A stretch of 64,000 nucleotides of DNA, taken from a virus. The DNA lies in the IMG/VR virus record IMGVR_UViG_3300021197_001654, positions 9,694 through 73,693 of that record; one strand, written 5' to 3'. The position numbers were made by a program, and so were the translations under genes. The notes under the pieces were generated by a model that worked only from the letters and a program-made list of their open reading frames with translations, was not told where the DNA came from and made no database searches. Below, piece after piece: positions 5,788-38,982 of this stretch. Each line of letters opens with the position of its first letter. Within the stretch, counting starts at the first letter, position 1.

Positions 5788-8415
5788 TCACTTCGTTACT
5801 TTGATCGCGCTTAATTTAGCTCCGCCCCATCGAACTGTTACACCATCTAGAATGTCGCGGCCTCCGACGGGAGACGCCCACTGAAATGGTAGATCTTTGT
5901 CTCCCGTAACAATATCTAAGCCTCCAGGAACTATTGATGACGGGACGGTAACAACTTCACCGTACTTCCGAACTTTGAGCGGCCCGTAACCCCGCATCCA
6001 AATATCCGGAACATACGAACTAACAAACCCACCAATCTCGGTAATGTCTAAGTCGACGGTAGTTGTGTTCTCAATAACCAGCATGACCGGTATATTAACA
6101 CCCAAGTTACTCGGAAATAATCGGTCTCCCCGACCGTTAGACTTACCCTTAGGGCCGAGTGATTCGAAAAACCCAGGAAGGATACCCGCCGGCATCGCTG
6201 TAATTTCCCCGTTATGGTACAACTCGGTCAGATCACTGCGATCGTAACCGTCCCAGTCAGATGGTACCTCCCAGAAATTTTCTGTCGCGACACCGTGCGC
6301 CGTCATAGGAATCACGTCGCCGTTGTTATCGAACAACGGACTGCGGTTCGTCCAGTTGAACGAATTTGTCAGCGTAGGGACTGCCGCTTGACCGATCTTC
6401 CAAGAGCCGCCCTGCTTGTAACCAATCGCAAAAGACGCGAAAAGATCAAGATACCTCTCCGCCAATAAGTAGCTACCGTACTTACTGTAAAGCTCCCGCG
6501 TAAGAATTCCGCCGCCCGCGAGACCGCTGTTCATAAAGACACTCGTCCGGACATAATTCGCGCCCGTAGAGTATATCGGATGGATGCCTAGCAACTCTAC
6601 ATCCATCATGAGTATCAATTTTTCAGACGGCTTAACCGACAGACCAGACGCCGCGAAACCCAGTTTACTCGGACCATTATTTAACTGAAACCAACCTACG
6701 TTATTTTCGTCGAACTCCGCGTCCGACCCCGGATACCAGCCATCGCTAGAACTCGTCAGAATATTGTTAGTCAACGACAGATCATCGGGGTGGGGTAAAA
6801 TTGCTTTGGACGTGTTTGCGTGCTCACCATGGGCTTCGTAACGACCTGTAAATTCGTTGATCTCAATATCAGGAGAAAGACTATCTGTCTCCGAGTACAC
6901 GACCTTAGACGGTAGGTACTCACTCGAGAAAACGTTAGTCCCGATATTAGACCCCTGTACGCTATTAAGCGTGGAAGCTAAGATATCACGAGAGCCCGAA
7001 ATATTATCATTCGTCAACTTGTCTTCAGGCATAAATCCTGGAGTCTCGAAACGACTAAAATCAGTCAGTGGCGAGGCGTTGTCACCCGCAGAATCTTGCC
7101 TGATAGCATTTATAGGCAAATCAAACGCAAGCATCCTTCGGGAAAAGACGCCGACCACGTCACCCTTGACGAACATATCGCTCTTAGGCTCAAGTCTGCG
7201 GGCGACTAACTCAATCGTATGATCTCCCGGCTCAAGGCTGACCACCGCCCCGAGGCGAACAGGCATTACTTCCGGACCATAAGCGACCGCACGAGTTGAC
7301 TTTAGCTTCTGACCCGGAGCTTCCCCCGCTGTGTCGGGGTCATAGAAGCTCGTTCCCACGAAACTCTTCTGACCAAATATTGTCCCCAGCCAGGAGTCAG
7401 AAACACTCAATCCCAACCCGATGAGCACATCTCCCAAGTCACCATCTCCCTTTCTCGGAGTACTGTTCGTCACCTGGAGGCCGTGCGCAGACTCCTCAAA
7501 AGGTAGTCGCTTACCCGTAATGGTCTCCTCTAGAATCTTACCATCAACGCGAATCGCAAATTGAATTCGGCACGGCGTATGACCTTCGGATATATGGTGA
7601 TACCCCTGACGGTTAGGTTTCGCATATTCCTCATCAGGGTAGATATCTTCGTTTAAAGGCCACGAGTAAGACTCGTCTTGTAGGTTAAGATTGTCTAAGC
7701 GGTTCTCGGTAGCCTCATTAGGTAGCGACTCCCATTTGGCCGACGGGTAGAAATTGTTGAGCGCCGTAGCCTCGTCTAACGCCAAGTTAGCTTGAGAATT
7801 ACCGGCCCAAGTGCTCCTAAGTCCGTCACCCGGCTCAGGTGCGTCGAGGACCTCAACCCCAGTAAACTTCCGATCGCCGGGAACATAAGGCGACTTATAC
7901 TCGAAAAAACCCTGCCATATATACTGCGCGTAAGCACAAACCCAAACTTGAGTCTGACCCGACACGAAGTTGATTTGCTGGGAGCCGCTTAAGTCTGCAT
8001 TCTTAACAGCCGTCCAGGCCCCGGAGTTCGGTATGATGGAGGGGTAGCCATCGGAGTCGGTGCCCGCATAAGTTCGCCGAAACGTCGCCTCGTCTAACTT
8101 CACAAAGTTCGGTGGCGGACGGAATGTGTAGTCGTCGACTAAGAATCCCGATTGCCCGTAAACCGGGTACGTACTCTCAATTTGAGTCGTATGGACATTA
8201 AAGTAGGCCCCCTCAGCCACGCACGGACCTGTTGTCTCCGGCGTTACACTAGTCGGGCCGGGCCTCAAGTCGTTCTTAAGACTATTCGCATTAAAATTTG
8301 TGCGGTCAAGGTTTGCCGCTAACAAATCATGCACCGGCTGAATGTCTTCGTTAAAATCTGAGGGGTCTAAAATATCGCGAGTCCGGAGGAATCGACGGGG
8401 AAAAATATGAGGCAT
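5788..8415 (-). CDS. Putative tail fibre/spike protein, 875 aa
   Basis: N-terminal DILDPSDFNEDI...NLDRTN anchor-like helix, beta-rich body, follows nozzle gene. Confidence 0.55.
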   Translation of the reverse strand: MPHIFPRRFLRTRDILDPSDFNEDIQPVHDLLAANLDRTNFNANSLKNDLRPGPTSVTPETTGPCVAEGAYFNVHTTQIESTYPVYGQSGFLVDDYTFRPPPNFVKLDEATFRRTYAGTDSDGYPSIIPNSGAWTAVKNADLSGSQQINFVSGQTQVWVCAYAQYIWQGFFEYKSPYVPGDRKFTGVEVLDAPEPGDGLRSTWAGNSQANLALDEATALNNFYPSAKWESLPNEATENRLDNLNLQDESYSWPLNEDIYPDEEYAKPNRQGYHHISEGHTPCRIQFAIRVDGKILEETITGKRLPFEESAHGLQVTNSTPRKGDGDLGDVLIGLGLSVSDSWLGTIFGQKSFVGTSFYDPDTAGEAPGQKLKSTRAVAYGPEVMPVRLGAVVSLEPGDHTIELVARRLEPKSDMFVKGDVVGVFSRRMLAFDLPINAIRQDSAGDNASPLTDFSRFETPGFMPEDKLTNDNISGSRDILASTLNSVQGSNIGTNVFSSEYLPSKVVYSETDSLSPDIEINEFTGRYEAHGEHANTSKAILPHPDDLSLTNNILTSSSDGWYPGSDAEFDENNVGWFQLNNGPSKLGFAASGLSVKPSEKLILMMDVELLGIHPIYSTGANYVRTSVFMNSGLAGGGILTRELYSKYGSYLLAERYLDLFASFAIGYKQGGSWKIGQAAVPTLTNSFNWTNRSPLFDNNGDVIPMTAHGVATENFWEVPSDWDGYDRSDLTELYHNGEITAMPAGILPGFFESLGPKGKSNGRGDRLFPSNLGVNIPVMLVIENTTTVDLDITEIGGFVSSYVPDIWMRGYGPLKVRKYGEVVTVPSSIVPGGLDIVTGDKDLPFQWASPVGGRDILDGVTVRWGGAKLSAIKVTK

Positions 8416-10875
8416 TTATCTGTCCTGACGATACGGAACACGGCCGAGCGGTGTTCCCTGAGTAGCGATACTTACGTCGAACGCAAAGCCAAATAACTTC
8501 AGTCGACCTAGCTCCCACGTACCGGGAATCTTAACCGCCTTATTAAACTCTTCCGCGCCAACATCATTGTCCCGATATAGCGACTCCCACACATGTTTCG
8601 ACCGGTCAAAAAAGTTAATGTCGGGAGCTATTTTCGGTTCGTCCGGGTCAGGCGGCGTAGGCGAAACCCCACCTACAAACTCAATCTCAAAAGCCCACGA
8701 GTTTGCGTTCTCGATGCCTACCGGGATCTGACGCCAGAATACTCGCGACTCTCGAGTTCTTGCCTTGCCGACAACAGCTTCTCGCGCCTGGTCAGACACG
8801 ATGCCCGAACCGTCGTCAGGACCGCAAAGGAGTAGGTCATTCATTTCCGTAAAAGGCTCCCAAGAGCCGTTCCGATAAAGACGAACGGTCGCCGTACCCA
8901 CCCAGGAGTCCAGCATCCCGACATACAGATTGCGAACATTAGTTGGGACTAAACCAAAATCACCTGAACGAAGCCAGGATGACCGGTAGCGAACTCTACG
9001 CGACGGCCCAAAATAGTCTGTCGACTGGCGATCAAGTACAAATATTCGGGCCAGGTCGACCCGATTACGAAAGTTTACCGTGGTCCCCGATGAGTCGGTT
9101 CCTGGACCAGCGACGACAATGTTTTGCTCGCGCGGGTCCGAGCCAACGGCAACGATATGGCGAGTGAAATCTTTCACGACACAAAGATCCGCGACGTGAA
9201 TACCTAAAGTCTGCCGGCGCCAGAACTCACCATCAAAGCAAAGCATGATCCGATTCTCAACTGAACCCTTCAGCGCAAGACAACAACGATACTCCTTCGA
9301 CTTCGGATCGAGGACAGATACCGCATTCTTAAACTGGCTACGGTTAAGCTCCATCTTAAATGTCTTATCTATAGAAGTACTAATTTTCATCAGCGCGTTG
9401 TTCGCACCTAAAGCATAGAACCCATCACGGCTGAGCCAGATAAGGCTACCATCAGGAGTTGCTTGAATTGAGCGTGGGCCGATGCAGCCTACGCCCGTCG
9501 AAATAGGCTTAGGAGACATAAAGTCGTCGTCGATTACGTACGTCGAGTTTTTCGTGAACGCGATAAGGTTGCCGTTGTGAGACGCCAGCCCTGTGATTGC
9601 GTCACCATCGCCGTCAGGAAAGATAAAGTCTTCGAGGGGAAAGGTGCCCGGAAATCCAACCTCTGACCGACGAACGACACCTGAGGACCCCGGAATGTTG
9701 CCGATAATCAATCGGCCTTGGTGCGCGCAGGCTACGCGGAACAAGGGTACCGAAATAGTCTCCGTCCACTCGAAGCCAAGCTCTACGTCGGCAGCGTTGT
9801 CGTCATAAAAGAATTGCCTCGACCCAGGAACACGAACGAGAAACCGAGGAATCGCGTCAGAGTGAAGCGTGTCCGGCGTCCGAAAGATTCTTGTGGCGAC
9901 TGTGTGCTCAGGAAGATCACCTGGCGACCGGACCAGAAACCGCCGAGTAAGGTCATCAATTTCCGTCCCTTCGGGCAGCGTGTGCGGGCCGGTCGTTTTA
10001 CCGCCGGAAATCAACTTTTGTAACGGCCTCTCGTCGTCATCGTCGTAAGCCACAGGCTCGAGAGATATCCCCCGAAAAGGCTCTGCTTGATTCGTGTGAA
10101 CCGTCGCGGCCTCGCTAGGAACAGATATCTCGGACAAGTTCCCGTTGATGTCCTCATACTGGAAGTAATAAAACCACGAACCCTTAAGCAACGCAGCGGC
10201 CTGACCAGTAAGCTCATCGCCTGCGGTGCCGATTCTTCCCTGCCACGAATAACCCTTAGAATTAGGGTAATAATTCACCGCATCATCAGCGCTCGGCTGA
10301 CTCGGCGAAGATACTCCAGGAGCGGCAGCTTTGCGACTGTATCCCAACGGCGTGGCCGAGTTATCCGAAGTAATTACTTGCGGTCGATCGACACCGTTGA
10401 AGTAAACAATTTGATCGTTAATAACAACGAACTGATCCAACGTCTCCGGATTAACCTGGGTACTTAGATTGCTCAGCAAGACTTGATCGGGACTATCATG
10501 ACCTCCGCTGAAAGAGTACAGCCTCGATCCGATGCGGTAGAGGAGCATCCGGGCTCCACCGTTTAATAGCTCCGCAGAAAACACGGCTTTCGGTACACCG
10601 GTTTTAAACCCGTAGTCCGGAACTTTATCCATCCACGGAGTAGTTAAATCGTTAACGTCAATAGAGACGTCCTCGAAAGCTGAACCATCCGCAGTGACAT
10701 AAATTTCAGGCTTGATTCTTAAAATAGAGGGCCCCACGACACTACTGAGTATGCCGTCGGGCCCAAGCTCTAAATTCTCTATGACCCACGCAAGTGGTGC
10801 GGGGGCAAAAACTTGCTTTCCCTCCCCTGGCGGGATGAAAACAGTATTTGTTTTTTGCTCCGTTGCACCAGCCAC
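8416..10875 (-). CDS. Tail nozzle / DNA-stabilisation protein (P22 gp10 / T7 gp12-like beta-propeller)
   Basis: 819 aa; HQGRLII, ITGLASHNGNLIAFTKNSTY, GVGCIGPRSI, LIWLSRDGFY segments typical of this class. Confidence 0.7.
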   Translation of the reverse strand: MAGATEQKTNTVFIPPGEGKQVFAPAPLAWVIENLELGPDGILSSVVGPSILRIKPEIYVTADGSAFEDVSIDVNDLTTPWMDKVPDYGFKTGVPKAVFSAELLNGGARMLLYRIGSRLYSFSGGHDSPDQVLLSNLSTQVNPETLDQFVVINDQIVYFNGVDRPQVITSDNSATPLGYSRKAAAPGVSSPSQPSADDAVNYYPNSKGYSWQGRIGTAGDELTGQAAALLKGSWFYYFQYEDINGNLSEISVPSEAATVHTNQAEPFRGISLEPVAYDDDDERPLQKLISGGKTTGPHTLPEGTEIDDLTRRFLVRSPGDLPEHTVATRIFRTPDTLHSDAIPRFLVRVPGSRQFFYDDNAADVELGFEWTETISVPLFRVACAHQGRLIIGNIPGSSGVVRRSEVGFPGTFPLEDFIFPDGDGDAITGLASHNGNLIAFTKNSTYVIDDDFMSPKPISTGVGCIGPRSIQATPDGSLIWLSRDGFYALGANNALMKISTSIDKTFKMELNRSQFKNAVSVLDPKSKEYRCCLALKGSVENRIMLCFDGEFWRRQTLGIHVADLCVVKDFTRHIVAVGSDPREQNIVVAGPGTDSSGTTVNFRNRVDLARIFVLDRQSTDYFGPSRRVRYRSSWLRSGDFGLVPTNVRNLYVGMLDSWVGTATVRLYRNGSWEPFTEMNDLLLCGPDDGSGIVSDQAREAVVGKARTRESRVFWRQIPVGIENANSWAFEIEFVGGVSPTPPDPDEPKIAPDINFFDRSKHVWESLYRDNDVGAEEFNKAVKIPGTWELGRLKLFGFAFDVSIATQGTPLGRVPYRQDR

Positions 10876-29948: not shown

Positions 29949-29957
29949 ACCCTAACC

Positions 29958-30293
29958 CGTTACACAGCGTAACACTCTGTAACACACTCAGTGTTACGGC
30001 AAACCATAGGTTCTATCTACCTTATTAGTAAGTGTAACACTGTAACACTAATTCCTTAGATAGTACTCCTCGTAGCGTGAGGCTCAGTGGGTTTAACGTA
30101 AGCCTATTACCCACTACCCACTGTCTCCTTACGTATACACACCCTAAAACACAAACCCGTGTTACAGTGTTACACCTCGGCATATGTCAGGTTCAACGCC
30201 GAGTCTCCCGTAACACGCACCATGTTACGCCGTGTAACGCACATCAGAGCATCCGGCCATAAGCCAGGTTCTAACGTGGGTCCGGCGTAACAC
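29958..30293. repeat. Iteron array, candidate replication origin
   Basis: About 12 GTAAC(A/G)C-type repeats in both orientations; perfect 17-bp inverted repeat 30032-30048 / 30159-30175. Confidence 0.75.
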
Positions 30294-30358
30294 TACCTCA
30301 ATCATCAGGCTTTTGCTGGTGATCATAGAAACTTCAACACGACCAGGAGGTCAACATC

Positions 30359-33248: not shown

Positions 33249-33277
33249 CAACAACCCAGTATTGCAAAGGAGCAATC

Positions 33278-33679
33278 ATGAACATCGTAATCATCCACGG
33301 AAACCTTGGCGCCGACCCAAAGCCAGGACAAACCAAGTCAGGTCTCGCTGTGTGCAACATGAGCGTCGCCACTAACGAACGCAAGCAAACCGACGGCGAG
33401 TGGGTCGACCACACCGAGTGGCACCAAGTCACCGTCTTCGGCAAGCAAGGCGAAAACTGCAGCAAGCACCTGGCCAAGGGCTCGAAGGTTGTCATCAACG
33501 GCAAGCTCCGTACCCGCAAGTACACCGACAAGAACGGCGTAGAAAAGTACAGCACCGAGATCGTAGCCGACCGGGTTGAGTTCTCAGGCAAGAGCAACAA
33601 CGCTCCAGCCACAACGACAGGCAGCATCCCGTCGTTCAACGGAACCTCATCATACGGCAACGACGAAATACCTTTTTAG
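33278..33679 (+). CDS. ssb: Single-stranded DNA-binding protein (bacterial type)
   Basis: MNIVIIHGNLGADP, TEWHQVTVFGK, LAKGSKVVINGKLRTRKY, acidic tail DEIPF. Confidence 0.96.
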   Translation: MNIVIIHGNLGADPKPGQTKSGLAVCNMSVATNERKQTDGEWVDHTEWHQVTVFGKQGENCSKHLAKGSKVVINGKLRTRKYTDKNGVEKYSTEIVADRVEFSGKSNNAPATTTGSIPSFNGTSSYGNDEIPF

Positions 33680-33683
33680 GGAC

Positions 33684-33966
33684 AAGTAGTTTGCGGTCTG
33701 CTTTACTAAAACCGCACCCTTTATACGAGCCACGCCCAATCGCCATGGGATAGTCGGGGACCGTCCCCCGATGACATGAAGTGAGGTAGCCCCTCACAAC
33801 AAAAAGGTCGGACCCCGAGTGCGCGTTCATTGCGTGCAGGCATACCGCTGGGGTCGGTGCGAGCGGCACCGTAAGAAGTGCGTCTGAACAGGTGCTGGCA
33901 TTATCTGCCAGGAGTAGTCAGGCCGAGGATACTCGGAAGACTCGCCGTCGACGAGGCGACACTTCA
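33684..33966 (+). ncRNA. Candidate structured ncRNA (~290 nt)
   Basis: 5' pseudoknot plus about 8 consecutive or nested stems in an otherwise densely coding region. Confidence 0.6.
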
Positions 33967-33991
33967 CCGCTCACCTTACCCAGGAGCAATC

Positions 33992-34174
33992 ATGCTTGAA
34001 CCAAAAGGCCTCCCATTTAAACCAATCAGCGAATGGACAGACAAAGAACTCCAGCACGCGGTCGATACCGCTCCACACTTCCGCAAGGAAGACACCATCA
34101 ACATGGCGGTGTGGATTGGGTGTCATGCCAGAGACGAACTTGAGAAACGAGCCAATACCAAGGAGCAGTCATGA
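33992..34174 (+). CDS. Early hypothetical protein
   Basis: AGGAGcaatc-ATG, same leader as ssb. Confidence 0.65.
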   Translation: MLEPKGLPFKPISEWTDKELQHAVDTAPHFRKEDTINMAVWIGCHARDELEKRANTKEQS

Positions 34175-34392
34175 CTAACGACGACCGCATCGCCTTGATC
34201 AACGACACAACAACCATCGACTCTCTGAGCTTCGCGCTGGAACGATCGAACGAAACCACGCACGGCGATGGCAACTACGACAACTACTCGCTCGGTGACA
34301 CTCAGATCACCGCGAGCGATTGGCAGCAACATTGGACCAAATCAGACCGCATGTTCGACGAGATGTGGAACGGCACAACAACACAGGAGTGA
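34171..34392 (+). CDS. Early hypothetical protein
   Basis: AGGAG RBS, ATGA coupling. Confidence 0.65.
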   Translation: MTNDDRIALINDTTTIDSLSFALERSNETTHGDGNYDNYSLGDTQITASDWQQHWTKSDRMFDEMWNGTTTQE

Positions 34393-34394
34393 TC

Positions 34395-34685
34395 ATGAAA
34401 GTAGTTATCAATGACTGTTACGGCGGATTCAGCCTAAGCCCCGCAGCCGAGGCCGCATGGGAATCACGCACACAACGCGAGTTCGAATCATGGGATATCC
34501 CACGTCACGACCCAGACCTCGTTGCGATCGTAGAGCTATTCGGCAGAGACGCTGACGGCCCCTACGCTGAACTCACAGTCGAAACAATACCCGGCAACAA
34601 ATACCGGATCCACGAGTACGACGGCGCCGAAACACTTTACACGCCAGAGACCACCAAGTGGATCACCGTTGACAACCCCAAGTAA
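34395..34685 (+). CDS. Conserved phage protein
   Basis: MKVVINDCYGGFSLS...IPRHDPDLVAIVE...YRIHEYDGAE. Confidence 0.8.
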   Translation: MKVVINDCYGGFSLSPAAEAAWESRTQREFESWDIPRHDPDLVAIVELFGRDADGPYAELTVETIPGNKYRIHEYDGAETLYTPETTKWITVDNPK

Positions 34686-34747
34686 AACCATTTTCTGGTT
34701 TGCGTTTTATTTTAATCTATAGTATACCGTATTGGTAAGGAAAGAAC

Positions 34748-35002
34748 ATGAAAGACGACATAACAATCCACGGCGGACCTCACGCATTCGCACCGGGACT
34801 CATCGACTGGTGTATGGGCTGCACCCGTACGACCTTCGACGAGGAAACTCGGGACGTAGGGGCGCGCATGTTCGCCCTGGCCGGGTTCCTACCTGAACTA
34901 TCCGCGCAACACCTACGACAAATCGCACAAAAAACCGTCACCTACTCAATCAATGAAGAGGCAAACACCGTCACCCTACACACCACAGGAACCAACGCAT
35001 GA
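34748..35002 (+). CDS. Early hypothetical protein
   Basis: AAGGA RBS after AT-rich promoter-like gap. Confidence 0.65.
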   Translation: MKDDITIHGGPHAFAPGLIDWCMGCTRTTFDEETRDVGARMFALAGFLPELSAQHLRQIAQKTVTYSINEEANTVTLHTTGTNA

Positions 35003-35448
35003 GAATCACCGACATCGAACTCGAAGCCCTACGCAAATTCAACGGCGGCAAGAACGCCAAGATACTTGCCAACGACCTGGAGCCAGGAACCTACCCAGTC
35101 CAAGTGACATTTACTTTAGCAGGCACACTAACAAAGGACGAACCCGGCACAACGACACGACGCACAACAGCCGGCAGCAACCACATCACTCGGTTCCTCC
35201 TGGACCACGCCAGCCCTAAAATCGTGGACTACCTGATCGCGAACCTACCACGCATCCGCAAGGGCGAGTTCTCAGAATACGACCCACCACGCCTCGAACA
35301 ACTCATGAACATCGTCATGCCATACCAAGAGATTGCAAGACAGGGTTCAACTACGTTCGCCGGCACAGCCATCATCGAGGACAACTACCTCGAAACCGGC
35401 CTGCCCGAAACAGACCACCCTGGCCTACGCCTGATGGCCCGAAGATAA
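34999..35448 (+). CDS. Early hypothetical protein
   Basis: 149 aa, coupled. Confidence 0.7.
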   Translation: MRITDIELEALRKFNGGKNAKILANDLEPGTYPVQVTFTLAGTLTKDEPGTTTRRTTAGSNHITRFLLDHASPKIVDYLIANLPRIRKGEFSEYDPPRLEQLMNIVMPYQEIARQGSTTFAGTAIIEDNYLETGLPETDHPGLRLMARR

Positions 35449-35459
35449 GGAAACCTACT

Positions 35460-35756
35460 ATGAAACTCTACCAAGTATATCGATGGGAAAACGACGAAGG
35501 ACCAACGGTTAGCTTCTACGCCAACAAAGCAGAGGCTACACGAGCAGCCAAAACCTTCGTAAAAGAAACCGACAATGACGCGGCGATAGAAGTATCCGTA
35601 CTCAAACTGCCCACAAAGAAGTCAGAACTAATCGACACATTAAACTGTATAGCCGCAACACGTGCGCACTACAGCGCCACACTGGTTGCATCGTATGACC
35701 CAGAGGAAGTACCTGACTACAACTCCGACAGCTTCTATAACGATGGAAGTGAGTGA
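35460..35756 (+). CDS. Early hypothetical protein
   Basis: AAGGA RBS. Confidence 0.7.
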   Translation: MKLYQVYRWENDEGPTVSFYANKAEATRAAKTFVKETDNDAAIEVSVLKLPTKKSELIDTLNCIAATRAHYSATLVASYDPEEVPDYNSDSFYNDGSE

Positions 35757-36094
35757 TGCCACTTGCATACGTACCACCAGAAGAAGCCTTCGAGGTTTGC
35801 ATTCAGTGTACCGAGGAGCAAATCCAACGGCACTGGCATCAAGTCCCGGTGTACCACGTCTACAAGGGAACCAACTTCCCTGACCCACTTGTCTACTGGT
35901 ACACGTTCGACAAGTGCGAAAGTGAGGACAACGAGTTCGACATCCGAAGCCTGCCCACATGGAGCACCAGGGCTGAGGCGATGGGCTCCCTTAGTGAGCG
36001 CACAAGGTTTCACGAGAGCTTCCTGCAAGAGGCCCTGGACCGTGGACTGGTCCGCATCAACAACAACCAACTGACCACCGAAGGAGGTGAGTGA
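35753..36094 (+). CDS. Early hypothetical protein
   Basis: Coupled ORF. Confidence 0.65.
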   Translation: MMPLAYVPPEEAFEVCIQCTEEQIQRHWHQVPVYHVYKGTNFPDPLVYWYTFDKCESEDNEFDIRSLPTWSTRAEAMGSLSERTRFHESFLQEALDRGLVRINNNQLTTEGGE

Positions 36095-36318
36095 TGACAC
36101 ATGGCATAGCAGTGATGGCCAAGTATCCACCGACTCACCCACGCTACCACGTTTGCCCTGAGTGGCACGCATGGGGCGGCCAGGTCTTCCAAACTAACGA
36201 CCCAAACCTCGAACGCCTCATAGAACAAACCAGTGAGGTCGCTCGACGAACCGGATGCTCAATACGAGTGCAACGACAACCCCTACCCAAAACCACAGAG
36301 GAGACAACATGTCCTTAA
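36091..36318 (+). CDS. Early hypothetical protein
   Basis: GGAGG RBS. Confidence 0.55.
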   Translation: MMTHGIAVMAKYPPTHPRYHVCPEWHAWGGQVFQTNDPNLERLIEQTSEVARRTGCSIRVQRQPLPKTTEETTCP

Positions 36319-36536
36319 ATTTTGACTGGCACATGAATGTACACATCGACAGCGCTGTTGTAGACATCGAAGTCAACTACGCCTGCGTAGAAATAGAGGT
36401 AAACGACTTCAACGCAGACACAGTAGTCACGTTCGACAAAGACATGCTTGACGAATGTCTTGACATCGACAGCCTATTGATACTCCAGGAGCTATGCCGC
36501 GCAGAGTTAGCCCGCCGAAACAAGGACGAAGAATAA
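36309..36536 (+). CDS. Early acidic protein
   Basis: GAGGAG RBS before ATG 36309. Confidence 0.65.
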   Translation: MSLNFDWHMNVHIDSAVVDIEVNYACVEIEVNDFNADTVVTFDKDMLDECLDIDSLLILQELCRAELARRNKDEE

Positions 36537-36814
36537 TGTTTCACATGATCACGGACAACATCCAGGCTTACAGACGTGCAGTCGCAGCTACCGCAACAGC
36601 GAAGTCAATCACCCGACTCAATCCACACAGTACAAACATCGACGAACTCGTCAACTGCCAAGTAGACGAACAACTCAAGCTTGACGGACTGATGAGTATC
36701 ATCGGAGCAGTAATCAAAAAAGCGGCCGCTGAACCACCCCACAACCCGTTCAGTATCAACGGCGATGTCAATCAACCCGACACATCACCACCCCCACCCA
36801 CGAGAAACTCATGA
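36536..36814 (+). CDS. Early hypothetical protein
   Basis: TAATG coupling. Confidence 0.6.
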   Translation: MFHMITDNIQAYRRAVAATATAKSITRLNPHSTNIDELVNCQVDEQLKLDGLMSIIGAVIKKAAAEPPHNPFSINGDVNQPDTSPPPPTRNS

Positions 36815-37014
36815 ACCCACAACTGCACACGACCCAAACATTCGACTTTCGAATCAGCCAGTCAGATGCGGCCCTGCTATTCCAAGCCATCGGTTATGCG
36901 GACAGCGAAAACAACATCAAGAACTGTGTGTCAGACCAGGCTTACCAACGACTGCAGCGGATGTCCCGTCGCTTCGAAGACATTGCCTACACACTCGTCA
37001 CCTACACGGAATAA
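36811..37014 (+). CDS. Early hypothetical protein
   Basis: ATGA coupling. Confidence 0.6.
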   Translation: MNPQLHTTQTFDFRISQSDAALLFQAIGYADSENNIKNCVSDQAYQRLQRMSRRFEDIAYTLVTYTE

Positions 37015-37017
37015 CAA

Positions 37018-37425
37018 ATGACCGGCGAACATGACGACAGCCAACAGTATTACTGCCCACACTGCCTCAAAGACTTCGGTCGAGGCCATCACTGCTGCGA
37101 CTGTGACATAGAAGCAGACCGGCTACCAACTCTACCCAACCAGGTATTAGCTAGATGTACAAACCTCAAGTGTCGTACCCATACCTGGGACCATAATGAC
37201 ATCTCCGACTGGGTCGACCAACATGGACGCATGAGGTTCTACATACCTGAAGAAGATGCAAACACATACAGCGGTGTGATCGACGTCCATCCTTTGATCG
37301 ATCTCGGCACGTACGAATACGCCCACAAAGAAAAGATCTGCTGCTCTCTCTGTAACGAAGGCGCATCCTTTAATTCACTCACGGACCTCATAGTCACAAC
37401 CCAAACCCAACAACAGGCACAGTAA
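37018..37425 (+). CDS. Early Cys-rich (Zn-binding) protein
   Basis: CPHC, CCDC, CTNLKC, CCSLC. Confidence 0.65.
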   Translation: MTGEHDDSQQYYCPHCLKDFGRGHHCCDCDIEADRLPTLPNQVLARCTNLKCRTHTWDHNDISDWVDQHGRMRFYIPEEDANTYSGVIDVHPLIDLGTYEYAHKEKICCSLCNEGASFNSLTDLIVTTQTQQQAQ

Positions 37426-38354
37426 TGCAAATTCACAACACAACACCAGTAGCAGCCCCACGTCTCAACACATCAATCCCTCGAGCACGGGTCGCACCAC
37501 TACCGCAACTCAAGTCGCAACAAATCATGACCGTCGGCGCACCTGAAGCGTACCGCGCACCATACGAAGCAGTGTGTGCAGTACCCGTACCCGACAACAC
37601 GTACCATCCGACAACCGGTAACACCCAGTACCAAGCCGTTCCGTACGCATCGTTAATCAACGGCGCACGAGACGAGATGTCGAACATACTGAACGCTCCA
37701 CCACTGTTCGAGACATACGCTCTCAACAAGTCCGGCAATCAGATGTTCGGTATGATCGGCTTCGGGTCAGGACACACCGGCCAGGCCATCACGGTCGCCA
37801 TGCGTTCGAGCTACGACAAGACCATCGCCAACCAGGTAGCCATCGGCAGCGCACCATTCATCTGCGCAAACGGTTGTTTCTCCGGCGAGCATATGATCAG
37901 CGCCAAGCACACCACCAACGTCTTCGAGACACTGGGTAACATGCTGGGTGACATCACCGAGACTGCAATCACACCAGTACTCGAGCGTATCCAGATGATG
38001 GAAGACTGGAAGGATATACCTGTCCAGGACGACTTGTTCGGTGCATACATGGGTGTGTTGTTCTCTCGAGGACTCATCAAGCCCAACTCATTCACCGCAG
38101 CCTTCAGGTACTGGCGCGACTGCCACGACGGCAAGCTCCACAACGAGCACGGAACTAACGACCTGTTCTCCGCGTACCAAGCAGTCACGGCAGCAGGTCA
38201 GCGTAGCTCACCAGGTCAAGCCTTCCGTCACTTCGCAGGTATCGACCACGCGACCAAGGCAATCGCTCAAGCAGGTGGGTCAGTCACAGACGCGTACATC
38301 CCAGCGTTCGACTTGCAGATCCGTGAGTACGTCGACGTAGCAGAGGCCAAGTAA
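37425..38354 (+). CDS. DUF932/DUF945-like protein
   Basis: YQAVPY...GNQMFG...RSSYDKT...FICANG...KHT...LFSAYQAVT pattern. Confidence 0.75.
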   Translation: MQIHNTTPVAAPRLNTSIPRARVAPLPQLKSQQIMTVGAPEAYRAPYEAVCAVPVPDNTYHPTTGNTQYQAVPYASLINGARDEMSNILNAPPLFETYALNKSGNQMFGMIGFGSGHTGQAITVAMRSSYDKTIANQVAIGSAPFICANGCFSGEHMISAKHTTNVFETLGNMLGDITETAITPVLERIQMMEDWKDIPVQDDLFGAYMGVLFSRGLIKPNSFTAAFRYWRDCHDGKLHNEHGTNDLFSAYQAVTAAGQRSSPGQAFRHFAGIDHATKAIAQAGGSVTDAYIPAFDLQIREYVDVAEAK

Positions 38355-38422
38355 TCCTTGTGGTTCGCCGGGTCATCCAGAAGCTCCAAAACCCGGCACT
38401 CCTCCAACCTACAGGACCCAAC

Positions 38423-38740
38423 ATGCACTACACCACACACAACAACACCGACATCGACATCTTCGGCACCCACCTGCAGGGCTACATCGACTGCTCCTAT
38501 CAGCGACTGACAACCCTCTTCGGCAAACCAGACCCTACAACATCCTGGAAAGTAAACTGGGAATGGATCATAAAGTTCGACGACGGCACAGTAGCCACAG
38601 TGTACGACTGGAAGTCCGGTTCCCGACTACGCGACATCGACGGCGACCGAGACACAGCAATCGTCCAGTGGAACATCGGCGGACACAACCGCAAGGCTCT
38701 CGACTATCTGTACGACACCATCAACACAGACACCGCGTAA
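38423..38740 (+). CDS. Conserved phage protein
   Basis: GTHLQGYI...LFGKP...KVNWEW...ATVYDWK...WNIGG. Confidence 0.8.
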   Translation: MHYTTHNNTDIDIFGTHLQGYIDCSYQRLTTLFGKPDPTTSWKVNWEWIIKFDDGTVATVYDWKSGSRLRDIDGDRDTAIVQWNIGGHNRKALDYLYDTINTDTA

Positions 38741-38748
38741 CGCTTTCG

Positions 38749-38790
38749 CGCAGTTGGGGATCTGCGGTGAACGGAACCAAAATCCCCCCT
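38749..38790 (+). ncRNA. H-type pseudoknot motif, second copy
   Basis: CGCAG/CUGCG stem; loop GGGGAU pairs with downstream AUCCCC; same layout as 33684-33720. Confidence 0.55.
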
Positions 38791-38805
38791 ATCAACGGAG
38801 CAACC

Positions 38806-38982
38806 ATGTCCTACCCAGACGATTGGGGCAACGGCTACACACTGTGCCCTACATGTAAACACTACTTCCACAAAAGCGGCACCATGGAATGCATCTGCAT
38901 CCAGTGCGCATCACCAGACTGCGACGAACTCGTAGACCCACAGGAGAAAACATGCAACGACTGCACGACGGACTCAGAGTAG
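38806..38982 (+). CDS. Small Cys-rich protein
   Basis: GGAG RBS; CPTC, CICIQC, CNDC. Confidence 0.6.
   Translation: MSYPDDWGNGYTLCPTCKHYFHKSGTMECICIQCASPDCDELVDPQEKTCNDCTTDSE

Follow-up and report, generated by a model that had tools for sequence, protein, structure and literature searches.

The 64,000-nucleotide (nt) window analysed here, positions 9,694 to 73,693 of the IMG/VR virus record IMGVR_UViG_3300021197_001654, contains three RNA pseudoknots, of sub-types C, B and A, that share one compact H-type architecture, a fold that compensatory changes have preserved in many uncultured phages. This is a real motif, widespread in these phages and uncatalogued as judged by Rfam 15, a comparison that leaves aside the set of 10,006 candidate viral RNAs in PMC10690425. 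A sequence-only reading of the window had described the same pseudoknot twice and had proposed that it was a new compact RNA motif. Both pseudoknots were confirmed, on the sense strand and 4 and 8 nt past stop codons, and their novelty is supported by the lack of a match in Rfam 15, by many homologues and by covariation in both stems. The architecture is indeed common to the two, but there are three copies in the window, each of a different sequence sub-type:

33684 to 33716, + strand: pseudoknot of sub-type C (copy 1), seen in the sequence reading, the loose scan, the descriptor search and in orthologues.
38360 to 38397, + strand: pseudoknot of sub-type B (third element), matched by model R1 at 65.4 bits (E 1e-15).
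38749 to 38787, + strand: pseudoknot of sub-type A (copy 2), seen in the sequence reading and the scans, with homologues in L066, L069, L073-75, L091, L098, L099, L111, L115 and L116.

The architecture consists of a first stem (S1) of 3-6 base pairs (bp), a second stem (S2) of 5-7 bp with a G-rich 5′ strand, and three loops, namely L1 (UU or UUC), L2 (0-3 nt) and L3 (5-28 nt, ending in YCAAA). The window elements are 33-39 nt long and start 4-8 nt past stop codons, in the sense of the early/middle operon. In copy 1, which is separated by 4 nt from the TAG of ssb, S1 has 6 bp including one G.U pair (33684-89 with 33698-703), L1 is UU (33690-91), L2 is 0 nt, S2 has 6 Watson-Crick bp (33692-97 with 33711-16) and L3 is 7 nt long with AAA at its end (33704-10). 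In copy 2, which lies 8 nt past a TAA stop (38738-40), S1 has 5 bp (38749-53 with 38762-66), L1 is again UU (38754-55), L2 is 0 nt, S2 has 6 bp (38756-61 with 38782-87) and L3 is 15 nt long with AAA at its end (38767-81). The third element, which had been overlooked, begins 5 nt past the stop of a gene encoding a 309-amino-acid (aa) DUF932-like protein; its S1 pairs 38361-63 with 38377-79, with a G.G at 38360/38380, its S2 pairs 38367-73 with 38391-97, and its loops are UUC (L1, 38364-66), CAU (L2) and 38381-90 (L3). Copies 1 and 2 thus have in common L1, L2, the AAA before the 3′ strand of S2 and the S1 core GCAG/CUGC (GUAG in copy 1); the shared loop length that had been reported holds for L1 and L2, but not for L3 (7 versus 15 nt). 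Three of the six S2 pairs differ between the two copies, with the partner strand altered to match, so the earlier observation that the S2 sequences differ and yet both pair was correct.

Compatibility with a pseudoknot carries little weight alone, because a loose scan finds about six compatible loci per strand in the 64 kb of the window. A descriptor requiring an S1 of at least 5 bp, L1 of UU, an S2 of 6 Watson-Crick bp, L2 of 0 nt and an L3 of 5-16 nt ending in AAA matched only copies 1 and 2, both on the + strand, with none on the - strand and a mean of 0.003 per shuffled window. Since this descriptor is post hoc, having been built from the two copies, support was rested on homologues with covariation. 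Nested folding gave no signal at the copies (z -0.1 to -0.2), as expected for a pseudoknot. A promoter reading of the copies was rejected because the hexamer spacing is wrong.

A search with the 309-aa DUF932-like protein reached loci at 65-99% identity, 9 of them viral and 44 from metagenomes, most from Tara or other ocean samples. The elements sit at cassette junctions, the stop of this same gene being followed in the relatives by A, B, A and B in tandem, C, or nothing. Sub-type A, to which copy 2 belongs, has the S1 CGCAG/CUGCG and an L3 usually with GUGAACGGAA; sub-type B has the S1 N-UGG/CCA-N′, an L1 of UUC, a 7-bp S2 and an L3 ending in CCAAA; sub-type C is that of copy 1. The three are distinct in sequence, since R1, the model of sub-type B, is blind to the A and C copies. 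A strict descriptor gave 23 matches in 1.9 Mb of sub-type C loci, compared to 0.5 in shuffles. In 185,579 prokaryote genomes (one per species), sub-type B gave five chance matches, none with a complete S2, and, set against this sub-type B scan, the elements were found in viral contigs only.

The set of sub-type B comprises 43 matches (30 distinct sequences) with 93% of cells paired and five pairs with changes on both sides, a score reached in 0 of 500 shuffles; when the partners are slid, pairing is 31-48%. The exchanges in S2 are A-U/C-G, G-C/A-U/C-G and C-G/U-A. In S1, which was outside the model used for matching, one pair shows U-A/C-G and the outer pair A-U/G-C; the outer pair is also C-G in rows gapped by the alignment, and a subgroup has a G.G mismatch. 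For sub-type C, two complementary scans of viral contigs were made, with either S1 or S2 held fixed. When S1 and L1 were fixed and S2 was left free, 12-14 of 123 matches had a perfect 6-bp S2 with an L3 of 5-7 nt, where about one is expected, and these comprised five unrelated, fully complementary S2 words. When L1 and S2 were fixed and S1 was left free, 14 of 95 matches (about two expected) had 5 bp or more of complementary S1 in place; the S1 words were of at least eight kinds, and the phages had 31-51% G+C. The joint alignment of sub-type C has 94.6% of cells paired and both-side changes in 10 of 12 pairs; its rows were preselected for pairing, which tells against the pair counts if these are taken alone, and so the evidence for sub-type C is the excess over chance in the two scans.

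The only conserved residues are those of L1 (UU, UUC, UAC, UAA) and, at the 3′ end of L3, YCAAA. These parts of the loops are the ones able to lie along the grooves of S2 and S1 in an H-type knot, and the residues conserved here are probably those able to make tertiary contacts. The G.U pairs occur on the sense strand only, which, together with the constant sense orientation, argues for an RNA rather than a DNA element.

The Rfam search that had been proposed for the motif returned no family match at the elements. With Rfam 15, the window gave 0 matches at the gathering threshold, the loci of copies 1 and 2 gave only chance matches when E values of up to 10 were allowed (SAM-SAH, for one, scored 9.3 bits where the cut-off is 40), and nothing was found on the elements of L087, L099, L104, L116, L142, L148, L203 and L230; all three sub-types and distant members were thereby covered. 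The preQ1-I riboswitch is characterised by a ligand-pairing C in L2, a P2 of 3-4 bp overlapping the ribosome site and an A-rich tail. The phage knots have only the A-rich L3 in common with it, and the class was rejected because the conserved C is missing from an L2 of 0-3 nt, S2 has 5-7 bp clear of the Shine-Dalgarno (SD) sequence and there is no covariance-model match. Coremin, or xrRNA-C, an exoribonuclease-resistant RNA (xrRNA), has a 4-bp first hairpin with a YGAD (or YGNNAD) loop, a conserved spacer of 8-10 nt and an obligatory second hairpin (PMC10520033). It was rejected because the hairpin loop here has 8-13 nt and pairs over 5-7 bp downstream, and because the second hairpin is absent, an SD, a tRNA or a second knot coming directly next. 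A recoding knot, which needs a slippery site or leaky stop 5-9 nt upstream and an extended open reading frame (ORF), would fit the spacer and was rejected for lack of an X XXY YYZ site or such a frame; bypassing was rejected in the same way, there being no extension and no matching codons. UG27 non-coding RNA (ncRNA) arrays, which consist of 150-nt units with a reverse transcriptase, were set aside as unrelated.

In the clade of the window phage, the knots lie 4-9 nt past a stop in at least seven gene contexts (a few at 16-17 nt), and in tandems, where A is followed by B, the second copy begins 5-9 nt past the first. Downstream of the knots in this clade come an SD and a start at 18-36 nt, C-rich spacers of 60-190 nt, or a tRNA. 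At five independent loci, knots are 3-11 nt before tRNA genes; C-type knots of other phages stand 3-10 nt before a tRNA-Pro or tRNA-Leu heading tRNA clusters (L203, L296/L332, L341 and L350), and a B-type knot precedes a tRNA in L094. Other C-type knots lie directly before a promoter-like site, TTGACT-17-TATACT (L272), 3 nt before an intrinsic terminator (L282) or just past a promoter-like site (L142), and some knots of other phages are 10-28 nt from stops.

Most of these placements are united by the end of an upstream RNA segment. This leads us to favour, tentatively and at somewhat less than an even chance, a reading in which the knot is a compact mechanical roadblock that ends the upstream message and shields it against 3′ exonucleases. 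The roadblock would be located at the end of a cistron, and the polycistronic RNA would be cut downstream of it, either by RNase P, where a tRNA follows, or by an endonuclease acting close to the next ribosome site. Exonucleases working 3′-to-5′ would then trim the RNA to the knot and halt there, thereby stabilising and delimiting the upstream message, and tandem copies would reinforce the block. Because the stems are free in sequence and only contact-capable loop residues are conserved, the element would act by its shape and stability. A 3′ roadblock is also the most economical reading in view of the free stem sequences, the tandem copies and the stronger 3′-side helix, since S2, the first helix met from the 3′ side, is more stable than S1 in 21 of 25 distinct elements (mean -9.3 versus -6.0 kcal/mol). 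Among the functions first proposed for the motif, an exonuclease block appears to fit the contexts best, as the elements occur after stops, before tRNAs and in tandem with free stem sequences, and a ribozyme or ligand switch appears disfavoured, as there is no shared pocket or core, with an L2 of 0-3 nt and an L3 of 5-28 nt.

Two known systems resemble such a roadblock. Repetitive extragenic palindromic (REP) elements and bacterial interspersed mosaic elements (BIMEs) are likewise short structured RNAs past stops, single or in tandem, that are gained and lost between relatives; together with gene-end stem-loops, they stall 3′ exonucleases and stabilise the upstream cistron. However, REPs are plain imperfect hairpins, chromosomal and moved by REP-associated tyrosine transposases (RAYT), whereas the phage elements are pseudoknots, found in viral contigs only and with no sign of a transposase. 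The xrRNAs of flaviviruses and plant viruses, including coremin, are also small viral folds of intergenic or untranslated regions in which the fold counts over the stem sequence and which act as a mechanical block, a property that is putative here; in contrast, xrRNAs block the eukaryotic 5′-to-3′ enzyme Xrn1, and the second hairpin, YGAD loop and conserved spacer of coremin are absent here.

Several points weigh against the roadblock. The RNA-library contigs are assembled and hence silent on RNA ends or strand, and one of them reads straight through an A element. At most simple junctions, the knot is also 18-36 nt before the next start codon, so a role for the downstream gene fits equally well, and the knot of L142, just past its promoter-like site, would be at a 5′ end. 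A ribosome that terminates 4-9 nt before the knot has to melt S1. Finally, a plain hairpin would suffice for protection from exonucleases, which leaves the use of a knot unaccounted for. It is possible, but doubtful, that these knots represent the first case of exoribonuclease-resistant RNAs in DNA phages, as widespread, 33-nt, sequence-free elements that stop bacterial enzymes degrading RNA or translocating along it. If so, they would set the ends and lifetimes of single messages within phage operons, and DNA phages would punctuate their operons with a minimal knotted RNA, as RNA viruses do with xrRNAs. The knots might then be put to use as portable stabilisers of mRNA and would offer a part of very small size and flexible sequence with which to control the ends of bacterial mRNAs.

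Four rivals remain, each accounting for a subset of the contexts. In the first, which we consider unlikely, the knot serves the downstream gene, either as a 5′ cap against 5′-end-dependent decay, blocking RNase J or the entry or scanning of RNase E after a cut in the pyrimidine spacer, or as a nucleation site for a translational repressor, as in the T4 gene 32 leader. At most single-element junctions, the knot ends 18-36 nt before a start, as this would require, and the A element keeps the same downstream gene while the upstream gene varies (the gene downstream of the window A element also follows an A element in L073-75 and L111); the promoter-like site just upstream of the L142 knot and the position of copy 1 beside ssb point the same way. 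However, where knots precede tRNAs by 3-11 nt, RNase P removes the leader, and the knots before the terminator and the promoter have nothing downstream that needs a cap. Moreover, the next start is 60-190 nt away in many relatives, and S1, which is met first from the 5′ side, is in most cases weaker than S2. The T4/T2 gene 32 knot itself, which has been linked to message stability, is similarly compact, H-type and intercistronic, with a short L1 and an L2 near 0, next to ssb. It differs in lying 5′ of its gene, where it nucleates gp32 on an unstructured leader, and in its L1 of 1 nt (this autoregulatory knot in the leader of the gene 32, or ssb, mRNA is reviewed in PMC3014915), whereas copy 1 is 3′ of ssb, other copies follow unrelated genes or precede tRNAs, and L1 has 2-3 nt. 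An operator of the gene 32 type, which would be a knot at the 5′ end of the ssb leader with an unstructured, A/U-rich run up to the start codon, was rejected, the knot being 3′ of ssb with none in the gap upstream of this gene (33249-33277).

The second rival, which appears rather improbable, is that the knots are cis-acting RNAs of processive antitermination, put- or nut-like, which would allow read-through of Rho-dependent or intrinsic terminators in untranslated stretches. It is plausible in that the elements lie just outside ORFs, before C-rich, G-poor spacers, tRNA clusters and an intrinsic terminator, which are places where termination threatens. On the other hand, one operon has two different elements separated by 390 nt, and tandem copies are 5-9 nt apart, which would be redundant for a processive mechanism; the free stems and the 33-nt size leave little surface for recognition by the polymerase, and the L272 element is in front of a promoter.

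A third proposal, to which we give a low probability, is that the knot modulates translation termination, stalling the ribosome at the stop and thereby tuning the output of the upstream gene without being a recoding signal. REP elements within about 15 nt of the stop are reported, by Liang, Rudd and Deutscher in 2015, to stall ribosomes in E. coli. The spacer of 4-9 nt would put the knot at the mRNA entry with the stop in the A site, which is the geometry of frameshift and read-through knots. The recoding knots of luteoviruses and retroviruses indeed share with the phage elements the fold class, an A-rich L3 and a spacer of 4-9 nt from the A-site codon, but the phage elements have no slippery heptamer or extended frame, the in-frame extension past the stop ending after 9 codons at both copies 1 and 2, and they also occur where nothing is translated. 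Also against this proposal, the L203 and L296 elements are in tRNA clusters without an upstream ORF, the knots of other phages can be 10-28 nt from stops, and the second tandem copies are away from the stop.

The last rival, the least likely of the four, is a processing signal or tRNA-like mimic for tRNA-maturation enzymes, or else a new ribozyme or ligand switch of very small size. In its favour, the 10-12 bp of the S1+S2 stack are similar to an acceptor/T minihelix, tRNAs are adjacent, sub-type B has GGUUCG as in T arms, ACCA follows some copies and the topology is that of the P1-loop pseudoknot of pistol ribozymes, but the 3′ tail past S2 is unconserved, there is no P2 or P3, Rfam gives no match to pistol, preQ1 or HDV-like families, the loop core beyond UU and CAAA is not shared, and L2 is 0-3 nt without the C of preQ1-I. 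A mimic of the turnip yellow mosaic virus (TYMV) type was rejected because the tails after S2 vary (CCC, CUC, UCU, ACA, AUU and others) with no conserved N-CCA. The pistol ribozyme, which is alike in having a hairpin of 5 bp with a loop that forms 6 bp with a downstream strand across an A-containing linker, was rejected because P2, P3 and its conserved core are absent from the phage elements and there is no match to RF02679.

The features that flank the three knots in the window are as follows:

33677 to 33679, + strand: TAG stop of ssb (gene 33278-33679, 133 aa; Pfam SSB 2.6e-33, PHROG 44; homologues of 133 aa).
38352 to 38354, + strand: TAA stop of the 309-aa DUF932-like gene (37425-38354).
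38423 to 38740, + strand: 105-aa gene with its start corrected to the ATG at 38423 (homologues of 102-124 aa begin at MHY/MKY residues).
38797 to 38808, + strand: GGAG ribosome-binding site and ATG (38806) of the next gene, the ATG being 18 nt past the A element.

A practical use of the knots is the correction of gene starts. The GTG listed as a start at 38360 opens a 126-aa frame that translates through the B element, which hid this element from the ORF list, and a public cluster of 126-aa proteins (P0001, 94% identical) likewise begins at the knot-translating GTG. Because the homologues of 102-124 aa begin there, the true start is the ATG at 38423. The knots also mark junctions of gene cassette exchange between related ocean phages. 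In an RNA-library contig of a relative, 37007 is joined to 38742, with eight other letters replacing 37008-38741, so that this relative is without the 135-aa gene (37018-37425), the 309-aa gene, the B element and the 105-aa gene. At the joint, the A element is once more preceded by a stop codon at a distance of 8 nt, which suggests a cassette exchange at the knot boundary.

Orthologues of copy 1 adjoin the ssb stop in G006, G009 and L245. No element follows ssb in the relatives reached via SSB (at most 57% identity), and the word AGTT-N6-CTGC gave only chance matches inside genes in five relatives. Between copy 1 and the next gene lies a G-rich, hairpin-rich stretch of about 160 nt (33717-33877), which had been noted earlier as a separate ncRNA candidate. 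In G006 and G009, the next gene begins about 25 nt past the orthologous knot, and hence this stretch is probably an insertion specific to the window genome.

The IMG/VR record behind the window has 73.7 kb and is rated complete, and the window carries the terminase, portal, primase-helicase and family A polymerase genes of a tailed phage. No close cultured relative was found with megablast, tblastn or blastn, none of which gave anything usable; a near-match in Pseudoalteromonas phage HM1 was rejected, as it falls within a coding sequence and has no partner strand for S2. The public runs that contain the window phage are seawater and aquatic viromes. Between 28.4 and 41.1 kb of the window, small early/middle genes form a tightly packed block on the + strand.

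A few further observations concern the surroundings of the knots elsewhere. On the - strand of L203, an IMG/VR contig, positions 5811-6026 contain a 78-nt match resembling transfer-messenger RNA (tmRNA; 57.6 bits) with a CCA end, followed after 28 nt by the C-type knot and, 3 nt further, by the tRNA-Pro. In L082, L085, L087, L088, L100 and L114, the B element is followed by very C-rich, G-poor untranslated spacers of 100-190 nt, which look like Rho utilisation (rut) sites and could load Rho. In the AT-rich phages of L148, L192 and L230, a C-type knot with the S2 GGUAGU/ACUACC lies away from ORF ends, inside a longer non-coding region that is conserved and has stop codons in every frame. In the window itself, a gene-free gap of 410 nt (29949-30358) holds GTAACAC/GTGTTAC repeats in both orientations, similar to an iteron or operator array. 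A promoter-like site at 34699-34728 (TTGCGT, a 17-nt spacer and TATACC) lies in the 62-nt gap before 34748, and its TATACC/TATACT type of -10 element recurs beside the knots of L142 and L272.

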